Source of the DNA: Escherichia coli
GTDB taxonomy: Bacteria; Pseudomonadota; Gammaproteobacteria; Enterobacterales; Enterobacteriaceae
Assembly: GCF_003334785.1 (NCBI RefSeq)
Contig: NZ_QOWV01000076.1
DNA: 679 nucleotides
Direction: 5' to 3' (one strand)
Made by a program: the position numbers and the translations under genes. The notes beneath the pieces are model-generated. The model was not told where the DNA came from. It saw only the letters and a list, made by a program, of their open reading frames with translations, and did not search any database. Below, in pieces: positions 654-677 of the stretch; the first letter of the stretch is position 1, and each line of letters begins with the position of its first letter.

Positions 654-677
654 ATCAGTAAGTTGGCAGCATTACCG
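654..677 (-). repeat. IS1 left terminal inverted repeat (IRL), element boundary at about 677
   Basis: Minus-strand reading from 677: GGTAATGCTGCCAACTTTACTGAT, matching the recalled IS1 terminal repeat (GGTGATGCTGCCAACTTACTGAT / GGTAATGACTCCAACTTATTGAT) except for one substitution and an apparent extra T. Only 2-3 nt of non-IS sequence follow. Confidence 0.82.

Follow-up and report, generated by a model that had tools for sequence, protein, structure and literature searches.

The left end of an IS1F-type IS1 element in Escherichia coli

The best described relatives of the element analysed here are the IS1 copies of E. coli K-12. Among these, IS1A and IS1E represent the 'consensus' IS1 of the IS1R type, which is autonomously active (PMC12428005). 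IS1F shares their architecture (768 bp, 23-bp imperfect inverted repeats, insA, a −1 frameshift site and insB'). It is a type IV K-12 element, normally immobile and located beside the fec operons, and has 73 mismatches to the consensus (PMC12428005), corresponding to 90.5% identity (PMC12428005, PMC12903888). In strain MG1655 it occupies NC_000913.3 4518472-4519239 and comprises insA7 (b4294) and the pseudogene insB7 (b4576). IS1F alone has a left and a right terminal inverted repeat (IRL and IRR) that are distinct from those of IS1A-E, with fewer mismatches between the two (PMC12903888, 2025). Both ends of IS1 are bound by InsA and InsAB' through a shared N-terminal region with a zinc finger and a helix-turn-helix (PMC12428005, PMC12903888), and the weak IS1 promoter, PIS1, partially overlaps the IRL (PMC12428005).

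The stretch of E. coli DNA considered here (the window) is 679 bases long by direct count, not 680 as a previous sequence-only reading had counted. The element lies on its minus strand, which from position 679 reads TTC, then GGTAATGCTGCCAACTTACTGAT, then TTAGTGTATGATGG; IS position p is thus window coordinate 677-p. With the window stopping at IS 676, the last 92 bp of the element (IS 677-768), including the IRR, lie outside it. In a position-by-position comparison, the window is identical to K-12 MG1655 IS1F at 674 of 676 positions, with two substitutions and no gaps, and to K-12 IS1A at 606 of 676 (89.6%). Searched as its reverse complement, the whole window matched 9,544 E. coli replicons, among them 3,346 records with at least 99% identity. 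All 25 matches listed for this search were 99.9% identical and none was 100% identical; the PGAP name on the top matches listed was 'IS1-like element IS1F family transposase'. We fetched two of the best-matching loci, the near-identical fec-locus copies of strains 300709 and E2865 (L001 and L002), each of which has one mismatch to the window.

Near-identity to K-12 IS1F combined with about 90% identity to consensus IS1 is the pattern that defines the IS1F isoform, and every other IS1 and IS1F membership feature that can be assessed within the window was likewise found. Judged by its sequence, the window is an IS1F-type copy of the insertion sequence IS1. IS1F is a named isoform that has been catalogued for decades, and the window holds nothing new in this respect. 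The copy agrees with K-12 IS1F in the 23-bp IRL, the three-base left flank, the amber stop in insB and the gene layout, and differs from it in the window by IS 313 C to A, which turns the frameshift motif A6C into A7, and by IS 201 A to T (Q49L). The features of the window are as follows.

654..676, minus strand: left terminal inverted repeat (IRL) of IS1F, 23 bp, GGTAATGCTGCCAACTTACTGAT; exact match, identical to the IRL of K-12 MG1655 IS1F
673, minus strand: IS position 4, A in the window and every IS1F-type copy examined, but G in IS1A (sequence comparison)
642..669, minus strand: promoter-like site overlapping the IRL, with -35 CTGCCA at 669-664 (IS 8-13), a 16-nt spacer and -10 TATGAT at 647-642 (IS 30-35) (consensus scan)
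346..621, minus strand: insA, GTG start at 621-619, 91 codons, TAA stop at 348-346 (NF050000, 39.2 bits, cut-off 28)
1..370, minus strand: insB' frame, -1 relative to insA, ended by the window edge at IS 676 (NF033558)
364..370, minus strand: programmed -1 frameshift motif AAAAAAA (A7), canonically AAAAAAC (A6C), with the changed base at 364 (IS 313) (sequence comparison)
134-136, minus strand: amber codon TAG in the insB frame (IS 541-543), TGG in IS1A (sequence comparison)
476, minus strand: private substitution (IS 201), T on the minus strand, A in K-12 IS1F, L001 and L002 (sequence comparison)
677..679, no strand assigned: flanking host DNA, TTC on the minus strand (comparison with K-12, 300709 and E2865)

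The coding part of the window has the gene layout of IS1, in which an insA of about 91 residues (zinc finger and helix-turn-helix) is followed by insB' in the -1 frame and a frameshift in a run of A joins the two into a DDE transposase. The InsA product contains the N-terminal zinc-binding domain of IS1/IS1595 (NF050000), and the conceptual InsAB' fusion matched NCBIfam NF033558 'IS1 family transposase' over the full profile (positions 1-199 of 199) with 237.8 bits, where the cut-off is 100. In IS1A the insB frame is intact and the motif is A6C; the window has the amber stop and A7. The same amber stop occurs in K-12 IS1F, where the frame is annotated as the pseudogene insB7, and PGAP describes the fetched copies as 'programmed frameshift; internal stop'. 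In the window, too, insB is a pseudogene, and due to the amber stop this copy cannot produce a transposase of its own.

At the right edge of the window, the sequence-only reading had recognized an IS1 left end on the minus strand, and this is borne out by comparison: the 23-mer GGTAATGCTGCCAACTTACTGAT has a single exact match in the window, at 654-676 on the minus strand, and no match arose in 200 shuffles. The 24-base span 654-677 consists of this repeat and one flanking base, and its minus strand reads CGGTAATGCTGCCAACTTACTGAT. In length (about 23 bp) and in its start, GGT(G/A)ATG, the left end has the form of an IS1 terminal repeat, matching that of IS1A at 22 of 23 positions and that of IS1F at all 23. 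The flagged bases are almost certainly the unaltered 23-bp IRL of an IS1F-type IS1 copy, on the minus strand and without an inserted T.

That reading had also proposed an extra T in the repeat (TTT for TT), that is, a true 1-bp insertion, which would alter how tip, protein-binding region and promoter are spaced. The insertion appears in its transcription of the bases, which it flagged as uncertain itself, having arrived at 680 letters. The window, however, has 679 bases; its minus strand reads AACTTACTGAT at the IRL, and a pattern search for AACTTTACTGAT yielded no match on either strand of the window. Further, there is an exact match for the 23-mer that lacks the extra T, and the alignment with K-12 IS1F is free of gaps, with two substitutions in 676 positions. 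An insertion is thus already refuted by the sequence as given, and we regard its probability as negligible. Since AACTTTACTGAT is absent and the 23-mer is exact, the additional T must be a transcription error, which matches the one-letter miscount; the caveat of an off-by-one count, made in the reading itself, was the right explanation. We also considered a real indel masked by the coordinates, which is excluded by the gap-free alignment with K-12 IS1F and the pattern search for AACTTTACTGAT.

Without a 1-bp insertion there is no change in spacing, and the suggested effects of such a change on InsA or transposase binding or on the promoter fall away. Altered spacing at a site bound by transposase and repressor and overlapping a promoter would have been of mild interest; the window has no such mutation. 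The left end of IS1F is textbook material; the isoform occurs in thousands of E. coli genomes, and its divergent ends have already been described and discussed. No paper with the exact 23-mer GGTAATGCTGCCAACTTACTGAT turned up in a full-text literature search. Nothing in the data is at odds with an ordinary IS1F left end.

The tip of the repeat, GGTAATG, is real, as read directly on the minus strand. The canonical IRL against which it had been judged is correct, K-12 IS1A reading GGTGATGCTGCCAACTTACTGAT. The two repeats agree at 22 of 23 positions, and the sole difference is at position 4, which is G in IS1A and A in the window. This difference is genuine, and it makes the first 7 bp of the IRL identical to those of the IRR, as had been pointed out. 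An IRL with A at position 4, distinct from that of IS1A-E, is at the same time a defining trait of the IS1F isoform.

The base at position 4 could nevertheless have arisen in this copy alone, by a recent mutation or by conversion from IRR to IRL, with a possible impairment or alteration of end recognition; the departure from the canonical IS1A IRL and the match to the IRR tip both agree with such an origin. Yet the same base is found in K-12 MG1655 IS1F and in the copies of strains 300709 and E2865. A BLAST search with the first 39 nt of the element, where IS1F and IS1A differ at position 4 only, covered 5,426 complete E. coli genomes. The IS1F spelling of the left end (GGTAATG) was the best match, with at least 99% identity, in 4,492 records and the IS1A spelling (GGTGATG) in 8,323, both counts being approximate, since each record is counted at its best place and a few of the perfect alignments are truncated (for instance H80, query 7-39). 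Both spellings are clearly common among complete E. coli genomes, and with the exact 39-nt left end of the window as best match in some 4,490 replicons, a private event is hard to envisage. In addition, the base is accompanied by about 70 further substitutions that are specific to IS1F and spread over the element, which point to a lineage of long-standing divergence and not to a recent point event, and IS1F is mobilised in trans (PMC12903888), which speaks against an impaired end. We consider a private change highly improbable. On these comparisons, the whole IS1F lineage is fixed for A at position 4, and the base is no lesion of the window copy.

The consensus scan found 9 of 12 matches in the promoter-like site at 642..669 on the minus strand, which probably corresponds to the weak IS1 promoter known to overlap the IRL (PMC12428005). 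Position 4 lies outside both its -35 and its -10 hexamer. By analogy with any IS1, the IRL of the window copy would be a binding site for InsA, the repressor, and for InsAB', the transposase, and from the literature it would be expected to overlap the weak insA promoter. Two more sigma-70-like matches, putative as promoters, are located in the insB region, at window 16-45 on the plus strand and 69-41 on the minus strand, with 9 of 12 consensus matches each. In total, the window has three sigma-70-like sites, compared to 0.7 expected in shuffles.

As the IRR lies outside the window, we read it from K-12 IS1F and the two fec-locus copies, L001 and L002. In K-12 IS1F and in L001 it is GGTAATGACTCCAACTTACTGAT. 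The first 7 bp of the IS1 IRR, GGTAATG, are identical to the window IRL, as are positions 11-23 of the IS1F IRR. Positions 8-10 differ, reading CTG in the IRL but ACT in the IRR, and the overlap with the insA promoter is an additional feature of the IRL. The IRR of K-12 IS1F (L004 4218-4240) has C at position 19, where that of IS1A has T (GGTAATGACTCCAACTTACTGAT as compared to ...CTTATTGAT). Together with A at position 4 of the IRL, this C raises the agreement between IRL and IRR from 18 of 23 positions in IS1A to 20 of 23 in IS1F, where positions 8-10 are the only ones to differ.

When InsAB' was over-produced, IS1F was the source of 44% of 48 insertions from non-consensus K-12 elements, and thereby the most often mobilised of the four such elements (PMC12903888). 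This share indicates that the ends of IS1F are competent substrates for a transposase supplied in trans (PMC12903888). The window copy, whose left end is that of K-12 IS1F and whose right end lies outside the window, would be expected to be mobilised in the same way.

These observations raise the possibility that the IS1F spelling, with A4 in the IRL and C19 in the IRR, is functional in that symmetric ends bind transposase better, which would make the dead IS1F an efficient non-autonomous passenger of the transposase of IS1A and IS1E. The higher agreement of its ends (20/23 compared to 18/23 in IS1A) and its rank as the top-mobilised non-consensus K-12 element are in line with this, and the same explanation has been proposed by others (PMC12903888). 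It is, however, hypothetical, and its authors call for mutagenesis (PMC12903888). IS1F differs from the consensus also at about 70 internal positions and in its genomic context, and genomic context was reported by the same group to modulate transposition (PMC12428005). We therefore see a functional spelling as possible but somewhat doubtful. It is already in print. It is also compatible with, and not opposed to, an ordinary IS1F left end, which we continue to prefer for the window.

The spelling of the IS1F ends (IRL A4, IRR C19) might further be an adaptation for preferential mobilisation by active IS1 copies, an idea that has likewise been proposed in print (PMC12903888); separately, the A7 allele might alter the efficiency of the -1 frameshift. 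We offer both as conjectures of rather low probability.

In its slip-site context, the window reads TTAAAAAAATC (A7), whereas the canonical sequence is TTAAAAAACTC (A6C). The change at IS 313, C to A, replaces asparagine by lysine at InsA residue 86 (N86K) and leucine by isoleucine in the first post-slip codon of InsAB'. Strains 300709 and E2865 share the A7 allele with the window, K-12 does not. An 84-nt stretch with A7 was found exactly in 360 E. coli records, compared to 4,129 in which the best match had 1-3 mismatches; among the matches listed with mismatches, most have a single one, as does K-12. A7 is thus a minority allele. The normal mode of IS1 is an inefficient slippage of a single tRNA, according to the literature on AAA-AAA slippage. 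If A-AAA-AAC is replaced by the tandem-slippage heptamer A-AAA-AAA, tandem slippage of tRNA-Lys could be permitted; our literature search found no measurement of an A7 IS1 frameshift site. In the window copy the amber stop further downstream would make any such effect moot. A scan against Rfam with gathering thresholds returned no RNA family in the window, so that no curated model of a frameshift stimulator applies.

The second difference to K-12 IS1F, at window 476, changes InsA codon 49 from CAG to CTG (Q49L). The window has no other mismatch to L001 or L002, and the variant occurs in none of the 25 matches listed for the whole window. It may be a SNP private to the strain or an error in sequencing.

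The TTC flank of the window has the three bases that stand on the ykiE/fecI side of IS1F in K-12, 300709 and E2865, and the two fetched loci adjoin ykiE/fecI as the K-12 element does. A flank of three bases is consistent with the same insertion site as that of K-12 IS1F, although it is no proof of it. We compared the 12-base flanks of the element in K-12 (L004 3461-3472 and 4241-4252) and in L001 and L002 (2992-3003 and 3772-3783). Those of K-12 IS1F, GATGGGGATTTC on the left and GACCATGTTTAT on the right, contain no target-site duplication of 8-9 bp. The right flanks are unlike each other, being the yjhU side in K-12 and TCCTCCCGAACT, followed by remnants of the IS3 family, in 300709 and E2865. 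K-12 flanks without a duplication, together with these differing right flanks, suggest a deletion or rearrangement adjacent to IS1F.
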